The notes beneath the pieces were generated by a model. That model ran no database searches and had not been told where the DNA came from. It was given only the letters and a program-made list of their open reading frames with translations. Below, piece by piece: positions 967 through 64,000 of a stretch of DNA of 64,000 nt (its first letter is position 1; each line of letters begins with the position of its first letter). Origin of the DNA: a virus; the IMG/VR virus record IMGVR_UViG_3300045988_019695, positions 39,492 to 103,491 of that record. One strand, written 5' to 3'. The position numbers and the translations under genes are program-made.

Positions 967-2091
967 TTAAAAGTTTGCTTTATCGTAAGCAGCAGAGTTG
1001 TCAACTGGGTTAACAATGTTCTGACGAGAGGCGATCATAGCCTGGAGCTTAGCAACGAAGCCGCCTGCAATCTGATCAGCACCCATAGCCTCACCATTGT
1101 TAGAAGCGTAGATCTCAACTGTCTGCTTTGTTCTACGCCAGAGATCATCAGCTGTACGGTACTGGTTCTCAAACTCGATAGTAATACCGTCGTACTTGTT
1201 ATCGAGGTTTGTTACCATAGCTGGCTGAGGATCGTACCAGCAGCAACGATGCAAAACGCCCTGATAGTCAAATGTAGCACGCTCGCGATCACGTACCAAT
1301 TTAGCTGTTGCTGGGTATGTAACGCCTTCTTTCTTAGAGAAGACAACACCAAGGTCGTACTTGTTGTTTGAAGCCCAACCTGGAGCTGCAGGGTTCATCC
1401 AATACATGTTAGCATCGAAACGACCCTTCATGTAAACGTTCTCTGTTCTGTTAGACTCATCGTCATCATACTTCATCTGTGTAAGAACGAGCTTCTGACC
1501 ATTGATCTTAGCATATACACGCTGGCGCTTTGGAGCACGGATGATATCCTTTACCAAACCCGCCATGATCTCCTGTACAGTATCACCAACCTTAGTTACA
1601 TAGCTGTATGACTCTGTCCACTTGCGATATCGCATTGGCATATCCTTGAAAGTAAGACGAAGAACAACTGGGCAACCACCCTGAGCGAGGAGGTCCAATG
1701 TCTCAGGAGCAACATCACTGAAATCGATTGTAATCTCATCCTCTGAATCTTCCTTGTAATCAAGCTTAGTAACAGACTTAATGTCTGCTACATTAATAAT
1801 GTTAGACCACTTTACAACTGGTACGAATGTAACATTACCAAGCTTGTCAACCTTCTGGAAGCTATCAGATGTAATAACACCAATCTTAAAACGGTCAGCA
1901 GCTGCATCCATCTTATAAACATCATCAATAGCAGTACCATCCTGCTTAGCTGGATCACAGTTCATGAATACGAACTTACCAACCAATGGCTTAAGATCTT
2001 CTTTCTTAGCCTTACCCTTCAACTCCTCTGCGGTAGCAAGGGTCTCACCGTTCTTGTTAGAAACGAGAACTGAATTTACGTATGTAATCAT
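967..2091 (-). CDS. abundant virion protein (auxiliary capsid or tail/ring protein candidate)
   Basis: Intact 374-aa ORF with no TAG and strong G/C-ending codon bias like the capsid gene. Has its own terminator and sits in the head-tail module. Function is inferred from position only. Confidence 0.55.
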   Translation of the reverse strand: MITYVNSVLVSNKNGETLATAEELKGKAKKEDLKPLVGKFVFMNCDPAKQDGTAIDDVYKMDAAADRFKIGVITSDSFQKVDKLGNVTFVPVVKWSNIINVADIKSVTKLDYKEDSEDEITIDFSDVAPETLDLLAQGGCPVVLRLTFKDMPMRYRKWTESYSYVTKVGDTVQEIMAGLVKDIIRAPKRQRVYAKINGQKLVLTQMKYDDDESNRTENVYMKGRFDANMYWMNPAAPGWASNNKYDLGVVFSKKEGVTYPATAKLVRDRERATFDYQGVLHRCCWYDPQPAMVTNLDNKYDGITIEFENQYRTADDLWRRTKQTVEIYASNNGEAMGADQIAGGFVAKLQAMIASRQNIVNPVDNSAAYDKANF

Positions 2092-22399: not shown

Positions 22400-22419
22400 T
22401 TTACGTAAGTGAATTAGGC

Positions 22420-22971
22420 CTATCCTTCACTTACCTCAGCACCTTCTTGTGCCGCCGCTGGCTCTGGTACGGACTCAACCTGTTCCTTAAGCTGTGACTG
22501 AGTTCCCGTAGCTGCGCTAGATTCATTCTCATTATCTGTGCCAGTAGAACCAAATCCACCCTCACCTCTCTCTGTAGGTGTAAGCTCTGAAACTTCTGTA
22601 ATTTCGTACTCTGGTACAGGAACTATGACTAACTGACAGAATCTCTCTCCCTTCTGATATACTGCAGGGATTGCATCTGTTGTTGCCTTCATGACAGCCA
22701 GGATCTCACCTCTGTAGTCACTGTCTATCACTCCGACATTATCTGTAAGCCATAATGATTTCTTCCAAATACTAGAGCGTGGTATAAGTAAACCAACATA
22801 TCCGGCAGGAATCTCAACTGCCAATCCTGTATGGTAAACCAACATTAGCTGATTTGCTTCATTAATAACTGTATCTATCTTAATGCAAGTCAAATCAATT
22901 CCTGCAGCACCTTTTGTGCCACGAATAGGAAGGATTGCTTTATCCTCAAGTCTCTTAAATTTTAACTCCAT
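22420..22971 (-). CDS. dut: dUTP diphosphatase with acidic C-terminal extension
   Basis: Trimeric dUTPase motifs AAGIDL, GLLIPRSS, GVIDSDYRGE, ERGEGGFGSTG. Confidence 0.85.
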   Translation of the reverse strand: MELKFKRLEDKAILPIRGTKGAAGIDLTCIKIDTVINEANQLMLVYHTGLAVEIPAGYVGLLIPRSSIWKKSLWLTDNVGVIDSDYRGEILAVMKATTDAIPAVYQKGERFCQLVIVPVPEYEITEVSELTPTERGEGGFGSTGTDNENESSAATGTQSQLKEQVESVPEPAAAQEGAEVSEG

Positions 22972-23040
22972 AGTATTTATAATATGTTTATTATTGTTAC
23001 CCCACTAGGATTCGAACCCAGACTAAACATAATCTTTTAA

Positions 23041-23469
23041 CTAGTCTATTGTAAGATTGTAGAAGTGAAGTTTTCTATGGCAATTTGCACATAGTACAAC
23101 ACATTTGTCAACTTCGTTTTTTATAGAAGCAACACCTTTGTCTCTACATTGGCTTCCTATGCTAAAAGACTTATCATGAAGATGATGAAAATCTAAGCAA
23201 GCTTGATCTTTTTCTCCACATATGATACAACCGTTAGATTTTAGTTGTCTCATATATTGTGTTAAAAATTTCTTATAAGATCTATGCTTTTTATATATAT
23301 CATTCTTGTTCTTTTTGTAATATTCCTCATAATATTTATGTTTGCATTCCTTGCATTGAGGTGATAGGCCATCAGGTTTGCTACTATTCTTCGCAAACTG
23401 ATCAAGTGGTTTTTCTATACCACATTTAGTGCATACTTTTGTTTTCATGTAAAAATATTTAATACGCAC
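23041..23469 (-). CDS. free-standing HNH endonuclease
   Basis: Cys-rich N-terminus (CTKCGIEK...CKECK) and CIICGEKDQACLDFHHLHDK...VVLCANCHRKLH. The ORF ends in TAG. Confidence 0.75.
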   Translation of the reverse strand: MRIKYFYMKTKVCTKCGIEKPLDQFAKNSSKPDGLSPQCKECKHKYYEEYYKKNKNDIYKKHRSYKKFLTQYMRQLKSNGCIICGEKDQACLDFHHLHDKSFSIGSQCRDKGVASIKNEVDKCVVLCANCHRKLHFYNLTID

Positions 23470-23491
23470 CTCTAACCTACGTATTTATTAG

Positions 23492-23564
23492 TAGCCCCAC
23501 TCCGTGTCCATCGGAGACCTACTGTTTTAGAGACAGTTGTGCACAGGCGGTACACCATAGGGCA
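23492..23564 (-). tRNA. amber suppressor tRNA, anticodon CUA (reads UAG)
   Basis: Manual cloverleaf: acceptor TGCCCTA/TGGGGCT (pos 1-72 is T-T), D stem GTGT/GCAC, perfect anticodon stem ACTGT/ACAGT with loop CT-CTA-AA, T stem CTCCG/CGGAG, discriminator A. Length 73 nt, no encoded CCA. Confidence 0.8.
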
Positions 23565-23570
23565 ATATAT

Positions 23571-23643
23571 GAGGACGCAGTGGAATCGAACCACTGTCTC
23601 TAAATCTTCAAATTTAGAAAGTTAACCATTACTACAACACCCT
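23571..23643 (-). tRNA. tRNA-like gene, Phe(GAA)-like with atypical anticodon loop
   Basis: Canonical T arm AGTGG-TTCGATT-CCACT and acceptor AGGGTGT/GCGTCCT. Anticodon stem CTAAA/TTTAG encloses 8 nt TTTGAAGA (or 6 bp plus a 6-nt loop) rather than 7. Confidence 0.55.
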
Positions 23644-23653
23644 CATTCTGTTG

Positions 23654-23725
23654 TTGCGGAGGACGGATTCGGACCGCCGACCTTTAGGTTATGAGCCTAA
23701 CGAGCCACCACTGCTCCACTCCGCG
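23654..23725 (-). tRNA. initiator-type tRNA-fMet (CAU)
   Basis: CGCGGAGTGGAGCAGTGGTGGCTCGTTAGGCTCATAACCTAAAGGTCGGCGGTCCGAATCCGTCCTCCGCAA. It has a C1-A72 mismatch, an A11-T24 pair and loop CT-CAT-AA, and closely parallels E. coli tRNA-fMet as I remember it. Confidence 0.8.
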
Positions 23726-23864
23726 ATAAGCACGTAACCTTTAGCTGGAGTTACGCAGAACCAGTATTGGGTCCATGTGTCAGCTTACCATGGTAGCCTT
23801 TTATTTATAGTGTACACACATGGATGCCACTTTATTAAACTATAAAATTTAATTCAAAAAGTCG

Positions 23865-23938
23865 GAGTCTATGCAGGAGTCGAACCTGCTAACTATTCCC
23901 TTTGTATCGGGCCGTCTTTACCGTTTGACTAATAGACT
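23865..23938 (-). tRNA. tRNA-like gene, isotype unresolved
   Basis: Perfect acceptor AGTCTAT/ATAGACT and T arm GCAGG-TTCGACT-CCTGC. The anticodon region GGCCC-GATACAAA-GGGAA gives only 3 Watson-Crick pairs and an 8-nt loop. Confidence 0.45.
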
Positions 23939-25726: not shown

Positions 25727-26011
25727 TTGCTTTTATTGTTTTACGCTGCCATAACGAAATAATTTTCAAAAAGGTTGCAAATGTGGTATAAATTTTGTAA
25801 AAACAGCAATTTTCCTACAAATATGCAACTTTTTCAGCTTTTTTACGTTAGGGGGATAGTAGAGGGTTAGTCAGACTAAGAACCCTTTCTCTTATATATT
25901 CTCTTTAGGAGATCTACTTTAGTAGTACAGCTATTACAGTATAGTAAGACTATATAGTATAGTAGAGCTATATATAAGTTTAGTAAGAATAGTAAGACTA
26001 ATAAGAATAGT
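25727..26011. promoter_or_regulatory. divergent intergenic control region with AT-rich direct repeats
   Basis: Separates the minus and plus blocks. Repeated TAGTAAGA(C/A)TA / ATAGTA units lie between 25920 and 26010. A near -7-type box CATATTTG is on the minus strand around 25822-25829. Confidence 0.45.
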
Positions 26012-29216: not shown

Positions 29217-30035
29217 GACAAATGCAACTCGCTTCGCTCAGACATCAGCTTAAAGCTTGCTTAGAGCTTGCCAAAGAAAGGAGATGGCAAGATACACAGG
29301 TGAAATTTCAGATAGAACAGATAGATAATATAAAACATAATAAAGAAGTAATCCTTGATTGAAAATTCAATATATGATTGCACAATATGCTCATTAATTT
29401 AGGGTTATTTAATTGCTAAGCGTAGCACAATAAGCGTGGATACATATCACAGTCTGTGAAGATAGTGGTATGTTTATTTTAAACTCAGCTAGGGAGAGTC
29501 TAACATAATCACTGATGAGACCTAGGCGAAACTACACGTTGCATCATAGTGTAGTCTGATTAATTACTCAAAAGCGCAAATAGACCTCACAATACAATGG
29601 TCTGTGAAGATAGTTGTATTGAACCGTTATCTCATGCGGTATATAAACTAGGATGACGGAGCGCCTACGCTAACGTGATAAATCGTAGGCAGTAATGTGG
29701 CAAGACATGGTCCCAAGCCCATGCACTACAACACGTGCTTATGGTACTTGCAAAGCTATAAGAGGTTCGCTTGTAGGACACAGAGGGTTAAATAGTAGTA
29801 TTACATGTATGCTGAGAAGAGACGTACAGCCTGCTTGCAAGAGGTGCTTCGTGAAATGCAATCTCTTCTCTATGACAATCCGAAGAGACGGATAGTGGTT
29901 ATTATACGCTTACTGAAGTAAGAGGGTATACTATGCACGAATTCATATAAGGATATTGTGCTTGGCTATATAAAGTGCACACATAGCGACGGTTCGAGTC
30001 CAGTAACCACTCTACCCTATCATGTTTTTTAGTTA
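29217..30035 (+). ncRNA. ORF-free structured island 1 (candidate non-coding RNA; ends approximate)
   Basis: No credible ORF on either strand. Many helices (listed in findings). Closing helix AGTGGTTA (29894-29901) / TAACCACT (30005-30012), then catgtttttt at about 30022. Confidence 0.45.
29506..29562 (+). ncRNA. hammerhead ribozyme candidate (stem I open, type I topology)
   Basis: Stem I TAATCA (29506-11) / TGATTA (29557-62). Core CTGATGA (29512-18). Short stem II GAC-cta-GGC (29519-27). GAA (29528-30). Stem III ACTACAC (29531-37) / GTGTAGT (29549-55). Cleavage-site C at 29556. Confidence 0.6.
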
Positions 30036-35334: not shown

Positions 35335-35542
35335 ATATATTTTTAGCCATATTCTAAGCGTTCTGAGGCGTCATAGGAGATAAGTGGAGTAATTAACCAC
35401 GATGCTTCCGAAAGCTCCTTAGAACGCATCTAAAGTGGCTTAAATCGAATGTTCTGACTGATCATCAGGACATTTACAAAAAGAATGTACAGTGTGTATG
35501 AAATAATCTGGCAAGACCGCGGTTCGAATCCGCGCATGTCCA
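35335..35542 (+). ncRNA. candidate structured RNA ending in a tRNA-like acceptor/T-arm module
   Basis: Nested helices ttagcca/tggcttaa (35343-49 / 35436-43) and gcgttctgagg/ccttagaacgc (35358-68 / 35417-27), plus inner hairpins. 35469-35542 has acceptor GGACAT/ATGTCC and T arm CGCGG-TTCGAAT-CCGCG but no canonical anticodon arm. Confidence 0.4.
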
Positions 35543-35791
35543 CATCCCTAATAAAGGGTCTGCTAAGAACAAACAGACAACCTAAGTATGTTGTAAAACT
35601 GCTTATATGGGCATGTTTTGGCTTTGATTGTCAGAGGAGATAAATACGTTAAGCACTATACTATAAATTAAACGACAATGTAAACAACATTGTAGACTAT
35701 ACTAACGTAGCGTAAGTTTAGTCTAGGTGTTTCCTACCAAAGTGGAGAGAAGGATTTTGGGGTTCGACTCCCCATTTCCTTCCTATTAGTT

Positions 35792-36313
35792 ATGACAAAG
35801 GGATATAAAGCGATGATAAAGGACAGGTGTCCTTATGTCGTCAACCTAGCATTTAAATGGTGTACAGAGTTTGGAAGATTATCTAATATAGGTAAGAAAC
35901 CACACGAAAGAATTAAGTACGCTGTAAAAACGCGATGGATAGACCGTGTATATCAAGAAAATATAGCAATCTACAACACTGGACGAGGAATACCTCGAAC
36001 AGATGAGAAGGATGCTTCATTAAGAAAAGCTCTTGGGATACACGAGGGGTCTCAAAACTTTAATTTTGCAGACTCTATAAACTTAGAATGTATTAACAAG
36101 ACTTTCAATGCTGGAGAATACGCATTTTGGATATGGGTAAATAGCTGGGTAGTATGGTTTCAAGATAACTATAAATTCCTAGAGAACTATTACAAAATAT
36201 CATGTAAATGTGGCAACATGGCTCTATTTGATAATTATTTATCAGAAAAAGCTGGATTCCTAGATAATTATCTTGAAGATTTCTCTAAGTTTATTAAGAA
36301 AACATTTAATTAA
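35792..36313 (+). CDS. hypothetical protein (173 aa)
   Basis: Intact ORF. Confidence 0.55.
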   Translation: MTKGYKAMIKDRCPYVVNLAFKWCTEFGRLSNIGKKPHERIKYAVKTRWIDRVYQENIAIYNTGRGIPRTDEKDASLRKALGIHEGSQNFNFADSINLECINKTFNAGEYAFWIWVNSWVVWFQDNYKFLENYYKISCKCGNMALFDNYLSEKAGFLDNYLEDFSKFIKKTFN

Positions 36314-39411: not shown

Positions 39412-39813
39412 ATGAAAAAATTAGTAATTACGTTGCTAGGAGCAGCATTTCTTGTTGTTGGCATGAATATTGCTGATCTTAAGAATGTTCCCCTTCCAAC
39501 GACAGTGCAAACAGTAGCAGCATCTACTGTACAGCAACCAATGGATCATTTATTTGATCAAGTGAAACATGCTAATCCTGATACAGTGCGTGATACCGTT
39601 AAGGTAGAAGTGCCTGTACCTTGTAAACATAAACAGTTGCCTGCAAAGACAATTGTTAAGCACACCATAATTAAGAAGACAGATACGTCGTATGTACCAC
39701 TTCTGTATATTATGGAACCTGGAGAAAAGGTCGACTCCACTAATCATGACTTTACCATTCGTAAGGGAGAGCTCCGTGATTATATTCAAATCGCCTCTAA
39801 TGTACACAAGTAA
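39412..39813 (+). CDS. secreted/membrane-anchored protein
   Basis: N-terminal MKKLVITLLGAAFLVVGMNIA signal-like segment. Confidence 0.55.
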   Translation: MKKLVITLLGAAFLVVGMNIADLKNVPLPTTVQTVAASTVQQPMDHLFDQVKHANPDTVRDTVKVEVPVPCKHKQLPAKTIVKHTIIKKTDTSYVPLLYIMEPGEKVDSTNHDFTIRKGELRDYIQIASNVHK

Positions 39814-56746: not shown

Positions 56747-59700
56747 TTATGGCTGGAAACTTCCACCTGAATCAAATGATCCGCCACCAAAATCCTATCC
56801 GGAATCAAACGAATCTCCACCAAAAGAATCGTTGTCATTATAATCGTTAGGCATTACAGGTTCTCCTGAAGAACTTCCTGTAGAATCGTTCCCGAACAAA
56901 TGCAAATACCAATATTTGTTTCTGTAATAATTCTATTTAGATCTTAATGTATTATAGTTAGCATCTTCGTACAAATTACTAAATGGAACCATCTTCATTG
57001 CATCTCTAAACCATCTGCTAGACCCTTTATACGCACCAGACTTTACGGTGTCAGTAGGATTGTGACCAGTAAGACCCATTGCGTCAAGCATGTAAGTGAA
57101 TCCTGTTCCAAAGTCATTCCATACAGACTACAACGTTGTAATAGATCCAACAAAGTCAGCAACAGTTGTTGGGTCAAGGTTTGTACCTCTAGCCTCTGCA
57201 AGACGGAGTGATATCAAGTATAGATACTGTATCCACCACGACTTATCATTATCAGCTTTCATCTTTAAGAAGATAGAGGCCAATGTAGCTGCTACGCAGA
57301 TAGCTATATCGGCAGACACTGCTTTAACGCCTTCTATTTCAAGCTGTGTTATACCTTTTAACTTTTCTCTCTTTTCGTTGTATTCCTATTTCTTTTCTTG
57401 GTCTCTAGACAGCAACGCACGTAATCCGTAAATCCAATTAGTTACGTATCTTCTTGATAAATTTGCTATAGATGTATAATGTCCTCTTTCAATCTCTCCT
57501 GTTTCATAATTATAGTATCCGTAGCTCTAAGCTTCTTCTGTTGTCTTAGGATTCTTTACAGGAACTCCGTTTTCATCTAATTCCTTTACAATATAATCGT
57601 TTGCATTTTGCATTCTTTCATATATATTGCCTACGATAAAGTTACGCATCATAAACATAATGGCAGTATACAGATTTTGTCTAGCTTTAGATACTTCTGT
57701 TGCCGGCATAACACCATTATAAAAGGCAGTTCTTTGAGCAATTTTGTTCTTTACATTCTTAGCTACCTTATTGTTTAGGTATTTTGCAAACGCCTTATTT
57801 ACGGTTGGTAAATAATCACCAGGCTCCCAATCATATGCATCGTATAATGTTGTATGTAAGTCAGAATATACAGCCTTAGCCTACTTTTTTGTATACCCAG
57901 AGTCAGTAAATGCTTTTATAAGTTGATTACGAGTATAGAATCCAGGCTTAACTCCAGCATATGATGTATCTTCAAAAAGTCTAGTGTGATGATAGAACGA
58001 CATCATTACTATAGAATTATTCATATAATCACCGAGAGTATAACCTCCCATCATAATGTATTTAAGACAAAATCTTCTGAACCAACCTTTATGTAAGCCT
58101 TCAAATATTTCAGAATTATTCTTACTTATTTGATTCATCTACATTAGAGCTCCTTCTTTTGTTGTTGGCTAAGCTTTTCCCAATCCTCTAAAATTATTTA
58201 CAATTGTTTTCGGATTTAGCAATTTTCCTAAAGCCCATCTAAAGTCTTTCATAGTAAGATATTTACCTACGAGAGAATCCTTAAATATCTGTAAGTTTGC
58301 ATCTAATGCACCAACAGTCATAGAAGCTGTGTTAAGACCAAGCATATGGATAGAACCATATCTTTTTGCTCTAGATATCAAAGCTCTTGCAGTATCGCTC
58401 TTCTCGTTATTCTTAGTAAGACCTGATACTACATTCTTACCATAGAACTATGTTTCAAGAAGTGTATTTATTGCCTCTTCGCTTCTCTGGCTACTATACT
58501 TATCCATTTTCCTGAAATGTTTGTAAACATTTCCTGATCTAGAGCTTTTATATTTATCTTCTCTATATTCTGGATTAAGCTGTTTTTGTATAGCAAGAAT
58601 TTCAGGAAGCAATTCCATTTTTCCTTCATAATTCTTAGCCATATCTACAAACTGTATAACATTGCTACAGATAGATGAGCTTATATATTCTGGATTATCT
58701 AATCTCTTTACAAATCTAATAGGAACAGTACTTTCGTCTTCTCCGCTAGGTGTAACTCTTTGTTTTACGCCCTTTACTTCGACATCTGTATCACTAGGCA
58801 TTATGCTTACCATAGATTTGCAGATATATCCAAATGTATCTTTAGCTGAATTAGGTCCTTTAGCTACTCTTGATAATAGCATGGCTGTAGTACCTTCTAT
58901 CTAAGGAAGCGCATTGTTATAACCAGACTTAATGGCTGGTATTTTCTCATACATCTACTTCATTGTGCTAGTAAGCATATCATAAAGCGCTCTAATATCT
59001 GAGTTCTAATTTATCTCCTAGTCGAAGTATTTGTCTTTATATTTATCTGTAAGCTAATATCCTGGTTCTTTTCTTTTAAAATCATATCTATCGTCATAAA
59101 TTCTATTTGGAGTAGCGTTACTTCTCTTAGAGAATCTTCCAATAGGTTTTAATATAATAGAATTGTATGTATATCCATTATAAACGAACGTACTACTCTT
59201 TGGTGTTATTTCATAGAAGCAATCAAGAGGCTACGGACCTTTCTTAGTATTCTTAAAGAAGAATCTATTGTCAATAAGATATCTTAAATCAGCATCAGAA
59301 AACGTTGTTATATCTTGACCAAAGAATTGATTAAGCTCTCCATTCTTAGCTCTATAAAGATATTTATCTCTAAAGAAGTCTAATTTACTTTTGTTTAAAC
59401 CAGGCTACATTGCAAGTCTATAATTAAAGTACTTTCTAAAATCAGACTTTGTTCCATTTTTACCAGAATCCTCTATATCTTGCTCAATCTGCTATGCATT
59501 AGCAAAGAACGCTTCTGAATCGTGTGGTAATCTAGAGAAATCTTTAGATATACTTCTGTTGTCTTTTGTCAAAGTAAGAAGACCACTCTACAGATACTTT
59601 AATATAGGATCGTTATACTAAGACTGATCAACATTTGCAAGCTTATATAACAAAGGATTTATAGCTACTGTAGAATTAAGTCTTATAAACTAATCTCTCT

Positions 59701-62227
59701 TTACAGGATCTGTAATTGCGTTAAGCTCTTGTACAAAAGCAGCATTATCCTAATCGTAATCAGTCTAATCAGATACCCATTGATTGAATGATCTTAACTC
59801 TATAGCCATTCTATACTTATCGTCTTCCTTCTTTTCTCCATTAGGATAGAATGGATTAGATAACTACTCAGCTTCTTCTTTTGCCAGCAAATAAGCTTTC
59901 TACTACTCTGGAGATAGATCTTCGTAATGTACTGTTCCGTCTTTTCTTGTAGCCTGTTTTGCATAATATCTAAGGTCCTCGTCTATTCTTTGTTTTTCTC
60001 TTATAGTGTCTGGAGATAAACCATGACCATGAGGATTAGCAGGTATAGGATCATTCTTGGTTTTAGGATAATATATAGGAACCGAACGCATCTCTTGGTA
60101 GTATTTTCTAGTGTACTACTTTATTCTTCTACCATCATCAAATGCATCCATCTCGTCAAGATAATCATAATATTTCGGTCTCTACCAACCAGATGAAGTA
60201 TACTTCCATCTTTCCTAATATACACTACAACCAGTCTTCTTGTCTATAAGTTCTCCAGTATCTTCGTCCTATTCGTAGCCATATTTTTCCATTAAGCGCT
60301 CCTGCTCTTTGCGCCTATCCTGTTCGTACTATCCTTGGTTGTACTCGGTTCTAAAATTACCTGTAGCTTTACCATCTCTGTCAAATTCCATCAAAACCAT
60401 CTCTGGATTTCCCGGAACAAGCTTACTCATAGTTTTCCAAGCATTACGTCTAAGTGCATCTATTTTGTGACCAATATTGTTTACGAACACCTGCCTGTCG
60501 TAGTCAATATCATTAACTTTGTTATACAATATTCTAAGTATAGGAGAACTAGATCTTCCATACATTCCTGCCCACATCTCTAGCCAGTTAATGTCTCCAT
60601 ACATAGCCTGTCTAAGAAGCCAGTCCTCTGCAACAATCTTAGCATTCTCTATATTACCAAGGCCCATATTATCATCTATGTATTGGTCTACAATATTAGT
60701 TGTAAGCGCATGTAACGCATTTCTATACAATACTGAAATATCCTACATAGATGCATTTATCTAATCTATATGAGTCTTTAATATAGCAGGGAAGCTACCG
60801 AACACCTTAGCTGAATTTATTTGATTTAACACCTCTTTAAAGAAGCCTATAGAGTTCTTGTCTATATCTATGAGCTATTGAGCTGTAATACCTTTAAAGT
60901 CATTCTTTCTAGCGTTCTCTAAGAACTTATATATAGAGCCATCTGTTATATTTCCATTTTGGTCCATATATCCAATTCTATCTACAACGTAATTTACAAA
61001 TGTACAGATAGCATCATCATCAGACTGTCTCTACATTTTTTGCATAGTCTAGAATAGCTTGTCCTATATCTTTATCTATGATGGTGTTTTTGAAACAATA
61101 TGGTCATAGGTATCAAATAGGTCCTACAATCTCTGTATAGCCTCATCTTTGCTAAGTGTATTATCAGCCATAAGCTAGAACTTAGCTTTATTTTCAAGTC
61201 TTACTTTATTAAATTCTGCTGATACTTTAACCTAGTTAATATCTATATTAAGCAAGAATGACTACGCCAAATACTCGTGTAACATTTCTTTATTAGATTC
61301 ATCTATAACCAAGTCTTTAAATGCGTCTCTAACCTACGTATTAAACTGCTCCCATATATCAGCTGCCTTTGTACGCTCAGCAATATCATTAGCTTTATTA
61401 ACAAGTATATCTACAAGCTTTTCCTCTGCTTCTGTTATATTTTTTATCTTGTACTGACTCATAATGTCAGATAGAGCCTTTTGTACCATCTGTGAGTTCT
61501 AGAACATATCAAGATAATGATGGCAGATCTCATGAGATTCAGTGTTAAGTTTTGCAGAACTTCTTCCAAATGCTACTTTAATCACATTTCCTATAGCGCT
61601 AAGCTTATTAGATATGTACTAGCCAGAAGCTTTTGCAATATCTTTTAATGATGTATTACGTATATAGTCTACGAACTATATCTGCAAATCTTTAGAAGAT
61701 AAGAGTATATTGCCTTCCTTATCTACTGATTTTGTAAGACCAAATGATTTCTCCAATCTATCTGCCAAAGTAGTGTGCAAACGTTCGTATTCTGCCTAAT
61801 TCCAGGCCTCTGTAGCCTCTCTAACAGTCTTGCCTTCCTACTACTAGGCAAGGATAAAATTATCCTTTCTAGAGCCATAATTTTGAGCCATAGAGCTAAA
61901 TGATTTAGCGTCAAACTATAATGCTCCATTATAGTTATCTAAGTCATCTATTGTAGGCTCTACTCTATCCTATGTCCAGTCATAGTGATCTTCTATGAAC
62001 TTTGACGTAAATATAGTAGCCTTCTCCAATATGGCTTTTTCTCTACTACCTCCATTACGCTGTAATAAATCTTTATACAGTGCGGAGTCTTTACCATTTA
62101 AATCCTTATCTAAAGGATATCCGTTGTTCTATGATAAGGCATAATAGGCAGCCTCTCGGCTACCTAAAATACCCTCATATTCATTTAACAACGCTTCGTT
62201 TTCTTTATTTCTTAACAAACACGTCAT
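56747..62227 (-). CDS. giant virion-associated protein candidate, 1,826 codons (TAG read as sense)
   Basis: ATG 62227, TAA 56747. Six track ORFs between 57527 and 60730 share this frame. I checked the frame triplets for 56747-57529, 58861-60331 and 60721-62227: only TAG interrupts, dozens of times. The short gaps 57710-57880, 58139-58168 and 58382-58447 were not checked triplet by triplet. Confidence 0.7.
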
Positions 62228-62232
62228 AATAA

Positions 62233-64000
62233 TTATTTATTACAGTCGTCCTATCTTCTCTTTCCGAGCTCTTTAAGATCGTCTTTTATTTCTTGTTCGT
62301 TCTTTACCTTGTAGTCATTTTTAGAGAATGTCTTCTAGTATACAGCCTTTATAGCATTAGCAGCCTTCAAAGCTTTATCGTATCCTACATAACCTTCTCT
62401 ATCAACCCACTATCCGTTTTTATTAACTTTATAGTTCTATATATTTCTAGTACCAACTCCAGCAAAAGATTTTGTTAATACAGGTGTGTCTTCTACTTCG
62501 AATTTACCTGTAGATTGATTATACTAATACCAGCTTTCTGTGTTCAAGTCGTATACATGTACAGGTTTACCCTATTTAATACCAACTTGTACAGCCATAT
62601 TAGTACCACCTTCTACAGCTTTCTGTGAGCTAGTTATATTAGCTATAGCAAATACTCCGTCAGACTTATCTACCTGATAAAAGTCTCTTGCAAGTAATTC
62701 TCCAGCAAGTGTATAAGGAAGCTCTCTTCCAGTTAACTGCTTTATCTATTCTCTTGCATAGTTAGATTGTTCATGAGTAATTGAGAAAGGTTTAACATTT
62801 TTATCCCTAAGAGTTTTAGACATATTCTAATTATCTATAGGTCTAAAATGATTTATCTTTGTTAAACCAAACTACCTACCTATAACATCCCAATATGTAT
62901 CACCACCATAAGCTCCACCAGAGTTCATTGTATAATCTTGCGGATTATTATTATGCTTTTGCTATGTTACCTATTTTTCGTCTGTTCTAGTAAATGCGTT
63001 ATCCTTTAATGTTCCATCTTCGTTGTAGTAGTTAAGCATCTTATCACTATTATGATGCGCATAACAATACATACAACTAGACGCACAATTACTATTGTAT
63101 CTAAGGATATCAACCTTACCACCATAACAAGTACAAAGCTATCTTTGTCTATTATTTGCTTCAGCCTTATCTTCTATATGTGTTCCAAGAATATTATTTA
63201 TCTACTGTACTGACAAACATCCTTGTTTGCTTATGCCTGGTATAATACCTGGTTCTGCACACGTAGATAATTTTACTCCATATTTATTTGCTATCTTAAG
63301 CATCTCTTCGGATATTCTTTTAACCTTTTCTGGACTTGCATTAGGTTTAAATTCTCCATTAGCAAGTTTTTCGTATCCATTCTTTTCATAATCATATCCA
63401 AGATTCTTCATAAAGATTGATGTTGTACGGTAATAATCCATTACAGAGAATTTAACGTTCTTTATGCCAAATTCAGATGCTCTTTTTATAAGCTATTCTA
63501 CATCTGGAATCTATGTAACACCTGGTACAATTGGATCGATTCTAAGTGTAACCATTTTTGGATCAAGGCCTTGTTTTATAAACTTGCCAACACGTTCAAT
63601 CATATCTTGCCACTTCATTACACCAGGCTCCCACTTTGTTCCGCCAAGAGTAGTTATACTAAAATGTATAATCTTAGGCTTTTGTATACTAAGTATTCTT
63701 CTCATTGGAAGCCCATCGTGCTTTGTGATAATGTATAAAGCATCCATGTCATTAGCTGTAAGAGTATTACCACGATAATCTTGTACTGTTGTTTTTCCAC
63801 TAAAGAAATCTTCAAGCTATTTAGCAAAGAATGCTGGGTCTGTCTTTTCTGAAGCTACAGCTATTCTAGGATGAGTATCGCTACCAGTAAACGGATGTAA
63901 TGCAAGAATTTCTTCGTTTGTAAGAATAGTATTAGGAGAACTTATTGTCTTCTAAGCCTATTCATAAGAAACATTATGAGTATCCTTGTGTTCTGTACTA
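62233..64000 (-). CDS. DUF1848-like domain fused to a Rossmann/SLOG-like domain; N-terminus outside the window (TAG read as sense)
   Basis: Frame checked over 62221-63540 and 63721-64000: only TAGs; TAA at 62233. Motifs: ITTLGGTKWEPGV, TLRIDPIVPGVT, STCAEPG, LCTCYGGKVDILRYNSNCASSCMYCYAH, then NSGGAYGGDTYWDVIGR...GGTNMAVQVGIK. Confidence 0.55.

Follow-up and report, generated by a model that had tools for sequence, protein, structure and literature searches.

The window, that is, the whole 64,000-nt stretch of DNA analysed here (positions 39,492 to 103,491 of IMG/VR virus record IMGVR_UViG_3300045988_019695), carries on its minus strand a short array of transfer RNA (tRNA) genes, the last of which is a candidate amber-suppressor tRNA with the anticodon CUA. 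The window belongs to a crAss-like, Burzaovirus-like phage. Its TerL has 97.5% identity to the one in cr124_1 (Burzaovirus faecalis, Suoliviridae, Oafivirinae), the closest complete genome used for comparison. In minus-strand order, the array comprises a tRNA-like gene (23865–23938), a structured spacer, a tRNA-Met, a tRNA with an 8-nt anticodon loop and, 5 nt on, the candidate. From the tRNA-Met onwards, the locus contains the following features:

23653–23725, minus strand: tRNA-Met(CAU), first gene of the inserted cassette (ARAGORN; Rfam, 58.6 bits).
23570–23644, minus strand: tRNA with the 8-nt anticodon loop UUUGAAGA, in the same cassette (ARAGORN 'tgaa'; Rfam tRNA, 36.4 bits).
23492–23564, minus strand: candidate suppressor tRNA(CUA), probably derived from tRNA-Gln (sequence, minimum free energy (MFE) cloverleaf, family covariance model and covariation).
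23464–23482, minus strand: hairpin ACGUA-GGUUAGAGG-UGCGU, between the candidate and the start of the HNH gene (conserved motif).
23041–23448, minus strand: free-standing HNH endonuclease of 135 amino acids with a TAG stop (phrog_2255, E = 1.4e-32).
22997–23026, minus strand: what is left of the ancestral canonical suppressor tRNA gene, its positions 42–71, UUAGUCUGGGUUCGAAUCCUAGUGGGGUAA (covariance-model match of 23.6 bits, sequence, and blastn breakpoints against cr124_1).
22414–22971, minus strand: dUTPase, the synteny anchor (annotation of cr124_1, cr7_1 and cr131_1; tblastn).

The minus-strand RNA of the candidate, from 23564 to 23492, is UGCCCUA UG GUGU ACCGCCUGU GCAC A ACUGU CUCUAAA ACAGU AGGU CUCCG AUGGACA CGGAG UGGGGCU A. 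It has a 7-bp acceptor stem, a 4-bp D stem and 5-bp anticodon and T stems joined by standard spacers, and it ends in A73, with CCA not encoded. A preliminary description, made from the letters alone, had proposed a 73-nt minus-strand cloverleaf with a perfect 5-bp anticodon stem (ACUGU/ACAGU), a 7-nt anticodon loop carrying CUA, a mismatch at 1–72, a T loop (AUGGACA) without UUC and a D loop without GG. All of these are found in the sequence, where the mismatch is U1·U72, and the cloverleaf is also the unconstrained MFE fold, at −24.5 kcal/mol (ViennaRNA). The anticodon loop, C32 U33 C34 U35 A36 A37 A38, includes U33 and a purine at position 37.

The same description had anticipated that the tRNA could score poorly in standard tRNA finders, which proved correct for both programs used. 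Default ARAGORN reported four genes in the window, none of them the candidate, and Rfam RF00005 did not match it at the gathering threshold (29 bits), nor at E ≤ 10 over a 601-nt stretch. ARAGORN called the candidate in its relaxed (-ps) or mitochondrial mode, with the -ps label tRNA(cta), and the -ps mode made zero calls on 1.28 Mb of shuffled window sequence. The candidate departs from the canonical elbow set (G18 G19, U54 U55 C56 R57 A58, G53:C61) at C19, G56 and A54; the GG and TTC motifs that tRNA finders use are lost, and standard finders therefore miss it.

To compare the candidate with suppressor tRNAs of other TAG-recoded phages, we used a covariance model (R1) of seven canonical crAss-like phage suppressor tRNAs, with no sequence of the window type in the training set. 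The model matched the candidate over its full length, at exactly 23492–23564 on the minus strand, with 61.2 bits (E = 3.7e-16), the top-scoring match over both strands of the 64-kb window. Suppressor tRNA(CUA) genes are known from crAss-like phages (Yutin 2021, Borges 2022, Peters 2022), and in cr124_1 (KNV57_gt04) and cr7_1 (KNV53_gt01) a canonical tRNA(CUA), annotated as tRNA-Gln, lies immediately upstream of the dUTPase gene. Further family members were retrieved by pattern scans of IMG/VR and metagenome contigs. Across 14 distinct family sequences, 98.1% of cells in the cloverleaf are paired and double (compensatory) changes occur at 14 of the 22 pairs, a value that none of 500 shuffles reached; such changes are found in all four cloverleaf stems. 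The loop CUCUAAA is invariant in all 14 aligned types, and the CUA anticodon, on whose conservation in homologues the preliminary description had made its reading hinge, is thus kept.

The window-type tRNA occurs with a 100% identical body at 17 loci, whose upstream flanks are of at least 11 kinds. Its variation is confined to the acceptor stem and is compensated, with G2-C71 replaced by C2-G71 at locus L037 and C4-G69 by U4-A69 at L051, while position 1:72 is either U·U or U·G. The type had no match in 50,697 GenBank phage records. By these comparisons, the candidate is best regarded as a real phage tRNA gene encoding a predicted amber-suppressor tRNA(CUA).

Two neighbouring observations concern other suppressor-like genes. 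The suppressor tRNA(CUA) genes at L004 (303–390) and L009 (8759–8846) have about 16 nt inserted right after the anticodon loop, which could be a long variable arm or a small intron. At L038, a window-type tRNA(CUA) is preceded, 440 nt upstream, by a tRNA-Gln-like gene (1880–1949, plus strand) whose anticodon loop, GUUUAAA, carries the anticodon UUA; this gene is possibly an ochre suppressor.

The use of TAG in the window shows what such a tRNA would decode. When TAG is read through, the minus-strand blocks 967–23484 and 56747–64000 yield long open reading frames (ORFs) rich in in-frame TAG codons (for example, 52 in an ORF of 1830 codons and 20 in one of 1272 codons), and the plus-strand genes at 25880–56730 have almost none. 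TAG recoding of late genes is a known pattern in crAss-like phages (PMC7886860; Borges et al.).

To define the meaning of TAG, we compared the late proteins of the window with those of relatives codon by codon, against a background Gln frequency of ∼4%. Counting non-TAG aligned positions, window TAG codons face Gln at 14 of 37 in cr124_1 and at 12 of 28 in cr131_1; conversely, the TAG codons of cr124_1 and cr131_1 face Gln in the window at 17 of 39 and 12 of 27, respectively. Gln is thus enriched about ten-fold at TAG-aligned positions among close relatives, in both directions, and in distant non-recoded homologues Gln stands at the best-conserved TAG positions of TerL. TerL homologues from protein databases were rejected as evidence on this point, since TAG had been treated as a sense codon in their translation and they are nearly identical to the query. 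A metaproteomic report (PMC9523058) gives TAG-to-Gln recoding in crAss-like phages as confirmed.

The body of the tRNA points to the same amino acid. Among the matches listed, bacterial tRNA-Gln sequences from many phyla have a common scaffold of U1, UAUGGUGUAA.GG.AGCAC, a variable region of 4 nt with GU at its end, and CUAGGUUCGAAUCCUAG (in its full-span form, U1..UAUGGUGUAA.GG.AGCAC...GUCUAGGUUCGAAUCCUAG), and the Bacteroidota tRNA-Gln sequences retrieved have A73. Some of these phages also encode a tRNA-Gln(UUG) on the same scaffold. Because this scaffold is common to bacterial tRNA-Gln and to the phage tRNA-Gln(UUG), we conclude that the suppressor family goes back to bacterial tRNA-Gln. 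In a genome scan, no host tRNA-Gln matched the 5′ half of the phage tRNA exactly, and a looser tRNA-Gln pattern gave no clear gut Bacteroides tRNA-Gln among the matches listed.

The bacterial Gln identity set comprises U1-A72, G2-C71, G3-C70, G10, U35, A37 and G73, and amber suppressors are readily glutaminylated (PMC9976931). The candidate agrees with this set at U1 (its 1:72 pair being even weaker), G2-C71, G10, U35 and A37. Glutaminyl-tRNA synthetase (GlnRS) opens the 1:72 pair, and a loop with A36-A37-A38 is a substrate of MiaA, typical of readers of UNN codons. Glutamine is thus a well-supported reading of UAG by the candidate, as judged from the scaffold and the alignments, and we infer charging by host GlnRS. 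The preliminary description had held that the charging identity cannot be read from the sequence; this was too cautious, as the tRNA-Gln scaffold and the alignment of TAG codons with Gln together permit an assignment.

A closer examination of the elbow, where the D and T loops meet, reveals how the candidate differs from its canonical relatives. MAFFT and model-based alignments agree in placing the window D-loop G-C beneath the canonical G18-G19. Position 18 is G and position 55 is U in both the canonical and the window type, and 53:61 is G:C in both; position 57 is a purine in the canonical type and G in the window type. The 19:56 pair, among the best conserved tertiary pairs in tRNA, is G:C in the canonical type and C:G in the window type, and 54·58 is U·A in the former and A·A in the latter. 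From CC in the D loop and GG in the T loop, the preliminary description had read the elbow contacts as swapped; the flip of the 19:56 pair from G:C to C:G stands, but there is no double exchange, as alignment to relatives shows G18 and U55 retained and U54 replaced by A54.

Since G18·U55 and the purine at 57 are kept and 19:56 is still a Watson–Crick pair, the L-shape should be preserved in an elbow that is rewired with its geometry conserved. An A54-A58 pair is natural in eukaryotic initiator tRNA (PMC7912444), and an engineered G19C/C56G swap was reported to retain aminoacylation activity (PMC3602588), precedents that make the elbow of the candidate plausible. The literature searched yielded no account of a natural non-organellar C19:G56 tRNA, which is absence of evidence only. 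The MFE fold lengthens the D stem to 6 bp (A14-U21 and C15-G20b), leaving a 5-nt loop; this extension is possible in all three types with a long D arm, with no covariation available there.

The window type is one of several related elbow variants. The cr131-type has G18, A19:U56 and U54·A58; the L185-type has G18, A19:U56 and G54·G58; and the L029 tRNA has A18, G19:C56 and G54·G58. The L005-type has G18, G19:C56 and canonical loops, with a bulged A in its T stem. Among 47 distinct tRNAs from the loci studied, 19:56 is G:C in 39, A:U in four and C:G in four, and is never unpaired; all the elbow changes observed are isosteric or compensated.

The L185-type suppressor (L185, 5155–5228, and eight more loci) has the D loop AGCGACUCU, the T loop GUUGGCA and a bulged T stem, and ARAGORN did not call it even with -ps. 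A phage tRNA-Gln(UUG) at L016 (10527–10598) has the D loop AAUGAUUA and the T loop UUUGAAU, i.e. A19:U56, so the A:U elbow is not limited to suppressors.

The history of the locus can be read from its alignment with cr124_1. Homology by blastn stops at window position 23723, which aligns with position 3 of the cr124_1 suppressor tRNA and lies at the 5′ end of the tRNA-Met, and restarts at position 42 of the same tRNA. The ∼700 bp between these breakpoints hold the tRNA-Met, the 8-nt-loop tRNA, the variant suppressor and the HNH endonuclease. The 30-nt remnant is the untouched 3′ part of the canonical gene and lies just ahead of the dUTPase start; in relatives, the dUTPase gene directly follows the suppressor tRNA. 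The breakpoints indicate that the first 41 nt of the resident canonical suppressor gene gave way to a mobile cassette of two tRNAs, the variant suppressor and the HNH gene. In the window, the HNH insert and the remnant of the old gene alone separate the candidate from the dUTPase gene.

The HNH gene starts 44 nt downstream of the candidate; its ORF was recognised by PHROGs and not by Pfam. At the same locus, HNH is absent in cr124_1 and cr7_1 and present in L041, L042, L044, L046, L048 and L053. The hairpin at 23464–23482 lies at the 5′ boundary of the HNH module and is also found after the L185-type, L029 and L017 tRNAs, and in L003, where the stem has changed by compensation (AUGCA/UGCAU); a role in controlling the endonuclease is possible.

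Several features around the cassette are unusual in their own right. The tRNA-Met(CAU) has the T loop UCCGAAU, with C55 where U55 is almost universal. The 8-nt-loop tRNA, which was not seen upstream of the suppressor at the other loci examined, might serve as a decoder of quadruplets or frameshifts, or might be degenerate. Within 22971–23448 (minus strand), the HNH ORF is in frame with the dUTPase through three close TAG codons, two of them inside the tRNA remnant, and a read-through HNH–dUTPase product is conceivable when the suppressor is active.

Upstream in the array, the tRNA-like gene at 23865–23938 (minus strand; Rfam tRNA, 37.6 bits) was called by ARAGORN with -ps only, and its anticodon arm consists of a 3-bp stem and the 8-nt loop GAUACAAA. 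It also occurs at L001 (1562–1636) and L062 (∼1675–1745); the loop is conserved in cr124_1 and cr7_1, and the diverged cr131_1 copy has it on a different stem. The conserved non-coding spacer at 23726–23835 (minus strand, ∼110 nt) forms a long hairpin, with one compensatory pair, and a second hairpin. It has counterparts at L001 (1666–1780) and L002 (1666–1950) and no match in Rfam, and in cr7_1 it holds a ∼170-nt insertion flanked by a duplicated CCAATACTGG segment. Two RNA features lie elsewhere in the window:

29482–29561, plus strand: RAGATH-1 hammerhead ribozyme (Rfam, 71.8 bits, above the gathering score).
35453–35806, plus strand: phage-encoded permuted transfer-messenger RNA (tmRNA), with the ARAGORN tag peptide DNVNNIVDYTNVA (Rfam tmRNA_permuted, 56.5 bits); an annotated homologue is present in cr124_1.

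Is the candidate the working suppressor? Because only a 30-nt remnant of the canonical gene is left, the resident suppressor has been destroyed in the window, with the variant standing in for it. The complete cr124_1 genome has exactly one family member and one tRNA(CUA), both at the suppressor locus. At L036, L049 and L052, the variant tRNA occupies the canonical gene's site directly upstream of the dUTPase gene, with no endonuclease and no remnant, and L049 is clearly TAG-recoded. Near-identical TerL clusters are found on hundreds of contigs, which indicates that the lineage is abundant. A non-functional gene would be hard to reconcile with the loss of the canonical gene, the endonuclease-free occurrences and the abundance of the lineage. 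The preliminary description had named this tRNA as the decoder of the in-frame TAGs, and homology to annotated suppressor tRNAs, covariation, the TAG-rich late genes and the loss of the canonical gene all speak for that role. We consider it very probable that the candidate is a functional phage amber-suppressor tRNA that inserts Gln at UAG and lets code-15 late genes be translated in a Bacteroidales host with the standard code. In the proposed mechanism, it would be co-transcribed with the neighbouring tRNAs, its ends would be processed by host RNase P and 3′ nucleases, and it would be completed with CCA by host enzymes. Charging would then fall to host GlnRS, an enzyme inclined to take tRNAs that have U35 and a weakly paired 1:72, and the tRNA would probably be isopentenylated at A37 because its loop has the A36-A37-A38 motif.

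Four observations weigh against this interpretation. The fold energy by itself is not significant compared with shuffles (z = −1.32), which is why we draw the significance of the candidate from homology and covariation. The identity of the tRNA body across diverged phages could mean recent horizontal spread with the endonuclease and not long purifying selection. U1·U72, C3-G70, A73 and A38 deviate from the E. coli Gln identity set. Finally, the window covers ∼64 kb of a ∼100-kb genome, so a second suppressor is possible outside it, although cr124_1 has none beyond the locus. The candidate might also be viewed as a decaying pseudo-tRNA or a non-decoding tRNA-like element, with UAG read by a host suppressor, an outside phage tRNA or release-factor interference. 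Its failure in default ARAGORN and Rfam, its lack of GG, UUC and a 1:72 pair, and its location in a mobile cassette beside two other odd tRNAs would fit such an element; but the perfectly conserved anticodon loop, the compensatory changes in four stems, the loss of the canonical gene at the locus, the lack of another tRNA(CUA) in cr124_1 and the abundance of the lineage make this very unlikely.

We regard it as scarcely credible that the suppressor is charged with another amino acid (e.g. Lys, Glu, Tyr or Trp) or is a tRNA for pyrrolysine (tRNA-Pyl). ARAGORN does label every CUA tRNA as 'Pyl', and the candidate, like tRNA-Pyl, lacks G18G19 and TΨC and can form a 5-nt D loop; Lys is frequent at TAG-aligned positions in distant TerL homologues, and several E. 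coli Gln identity positions differ. Against this, the TAG-aligned positions of close relatives are enriched in Gln far more than in any other residue, whichever way the comparison is run, and the scaffold is that of tRNA-Gln. The hallmarks of tRNA-Pyl are a 6-bp anticodon stem, a 3-nt variable loop and one base between the acceptor and D stems, and the candidate has instead a 5-bp anticodon stem, a 4-nt variable loop (AGGU) and two bases (U8 G9). Readings as tRNA-Pyl or as a selenocysteine tRNA-like molecule, which had arisen from the small D loop and 6-bp D stem of the MFE fold, were rejected on this architecture and on the Gln signal. A Gln-inserting suppressor remains our preferred interpretation.

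Why the elbow is so unusual is a separate question, and here the neighbouring endonucleases are relevant. At endonuclease-linked loci, an HNH homologue starts 41–52 nt after the variant suppressor tRNA. It follows the window type at seven of the 16 loci that have any downstream sequence (three of the nine without HNH have <800 nt), the L185-type at 9/9 loci, the L029 tRNA at 1/1, the L003-type at 2/2 and the L005-type at 1/8. No HNH gene was found after fully canonical types in 17 loci of eight types. The cr131-type tRNA, with A19:U56, is followed by a GIY-YIG endonuclease. Overall, six of eight types with an irregular T arm are endonuclease-linked, compared with none of eight regular types (hypergeometric p ∼0.004, a value that ignores shared ancestry). 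The link between homing endonucleases and rewired elbows is suggestive.

One explanation, which we regard as possible and hold tentatively, is that rewiring is an adaptation to the homing endonucleases, in that a tRNA allele travelling with an endonuclease must be immune to its cleavage. The endonucleases (HNH here, GIY-YIG in cr131_1) would recognise the DNA of the T arm or anticodon arm in canonical suppressor tRNA genes, and changes at T-loop bases that hardly ever vary (C56, U54) would be fixed and then compensated in the D loop (G19). This is compatible with function as a Gln suppressor, and would account for the odd looks of the tRNA rather than for what it does. The association of HNH and GIY-YIG genes with irregular types and with no canonical type is in keeping with it, as is the replacement of the resident gene in the window, with a remnant at the junction. 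A precedent is T4 SegB, encoded within a tRNA cluster, whose 27-bp recognition site includes GGTTCRANTCC, a TΨC stem-loop motif (PMC2330249). Yet this evidence is correlative only, and the endonuclease-linked types share ancestry, so that few independent events are represented. Irregular T arms also occur without an endonuclease (L058, L008 370–441, and the window type in L036, L049 and L052), and both the remnant and the 8-nt-loop tRNA retain a canonical GGTTCGA(A/T)TCC beside the HNH gene. Because such canonical motifs survive there, we keep cleavage immunity at the level of a hypothesis.

It is also conceivable, though we would not favour it, that slightly defective alleles spread through linkage to a selfish endonuclease, the elbow being a product of drift and compensation with no role in immunity. 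The same HNH association fits such hitch-hiking, as do several sister types whose T stems, bulged or mismatched, appear mildly deleterious, and the identity of the tRNA body across phages with dUTPases only 52–57% identical, which suggests recent horizontal spread. On the other hand, every elbow change is isosteric or compensated, and in the endonuclease-free L036, L049 and L052 the window type is the sole suppressor at the locus and gains no advantage from linkage. We regard hitch-hiking with compensation and cleavage immunity as equally viable. More generally, and as a speculation that we think rather unlikely to hold in full, endonucleases beside an essential suppressor tRNA gene may select cleavage-immune alleles and so repeatedly force compensated rewiring of the elbow (G19:C56 to C19:G56 or A19:U56; U54·A58 to A54·A58 or G54·G58). 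Functional tRNAs would thereby become invisible to finders, which may explain part of the ∼60% of TAG-recoded phages without a detected suppressor.

It was already known that phages encode suppressor tRNA(CUA) genes, that crAss-like phages recode TAG to Gln in their late genes and that phage tRNA clusters can contain endonucleases. What is new is a natural, conserved C19:G56/A54 elbow, a series of related elbow variants, and a suppressor shown to escape routine detection. TAG suppressors were detected in only 40% of TAG-recoded genomes, possibly due to 'noncanonical sequences or secondary structures' (Borges et al.), and recoding and detectable suppressors agree imperfectly (Yutin et al., PMC7886860); both surveys speculated that divergent tRNAs evade detection. 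The window locus offers a concrete, evolutionarily validated example of such a 'missing' suppressor tRNA, and recoded phages would be better annotated if tRNA models included these variants. The family also provides a natural covariation series at 19:56 (G:C, A:U, C:G) and at 54:58, showing elbow solutions that bacterial translation appears to tolerate, and such a suppressor could be a starting scaffold for orthogonal tRNAs in Bacteroides.

The closest known counterparts are the canonical suppressor tRNAs of crAss-like phages (cr124_1 and cr7_1), which have in common with the window tRNA the 5′ acceptor/D-stem strand UGCCCUAUGGUGU, the anticodon loop CUCUAAA, the site upstream of dUTPase and TAG-to-Gln recoding of late genes. 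They differ from it in the D loop (AACGGCA compared with ACCGCCUGU), the T loop (UUCGAAU compared with AUGGACA), the anticodon stem (GGAGU/ACUCU compared with ACUGU/ACAGU) and the T stem (CUGGG/CCUAG compared with CUCCG/CGGAG), the two stems differing by compensated substitutions only. Unlike them, the window tRNA has C19:G56, A54·A58 and U1·U72 and is missed by default ARAGORN and Rfam. With bacterial tRNA-Gln (UUG/CUG) it has in common U1 with a weak 1:72 pair, U8, G10, the D stem GUGU/GCAC, the variable region of 4 nt that closes with GU, and an A73 like that of the retrieved Bacteroidota sequences; it differs in its CUA anticodon, its rewired elbow and its longer D arm. Eukaryotic cytoplasmic initiator tRNA likewise has an A54·A58 Hoogsteen purine–purine pair in place of U54·A58, plus A60 (PMC7912444), but it retains G19:C56 and is unrelated in sequence and function, so the likeness is one of analogy only. 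The engineered G19C/C56G tRNAs carry the same flipped Watson–Crick elbow pair; they are laboratory constructs, whereas the flip in the window type is natural, fixed and conserved over many phage genomes. Finally, the locus resembles those of T4 SegB and T5 F-Tfl, each with a free-standing endonuclease gene inside a tRNA array, variably present among close relatives, and with resident tRNA genes replaced. SegB recognises a DNA motif of the TΨC arm (PMC2330249), and a corresponding immunity of the window allele is hypothetical. The window nuclease differs in being of the HNH type, not GIY-YIG, and the tRNA linked to it is a suppressor that the recoded late genes apparently require.

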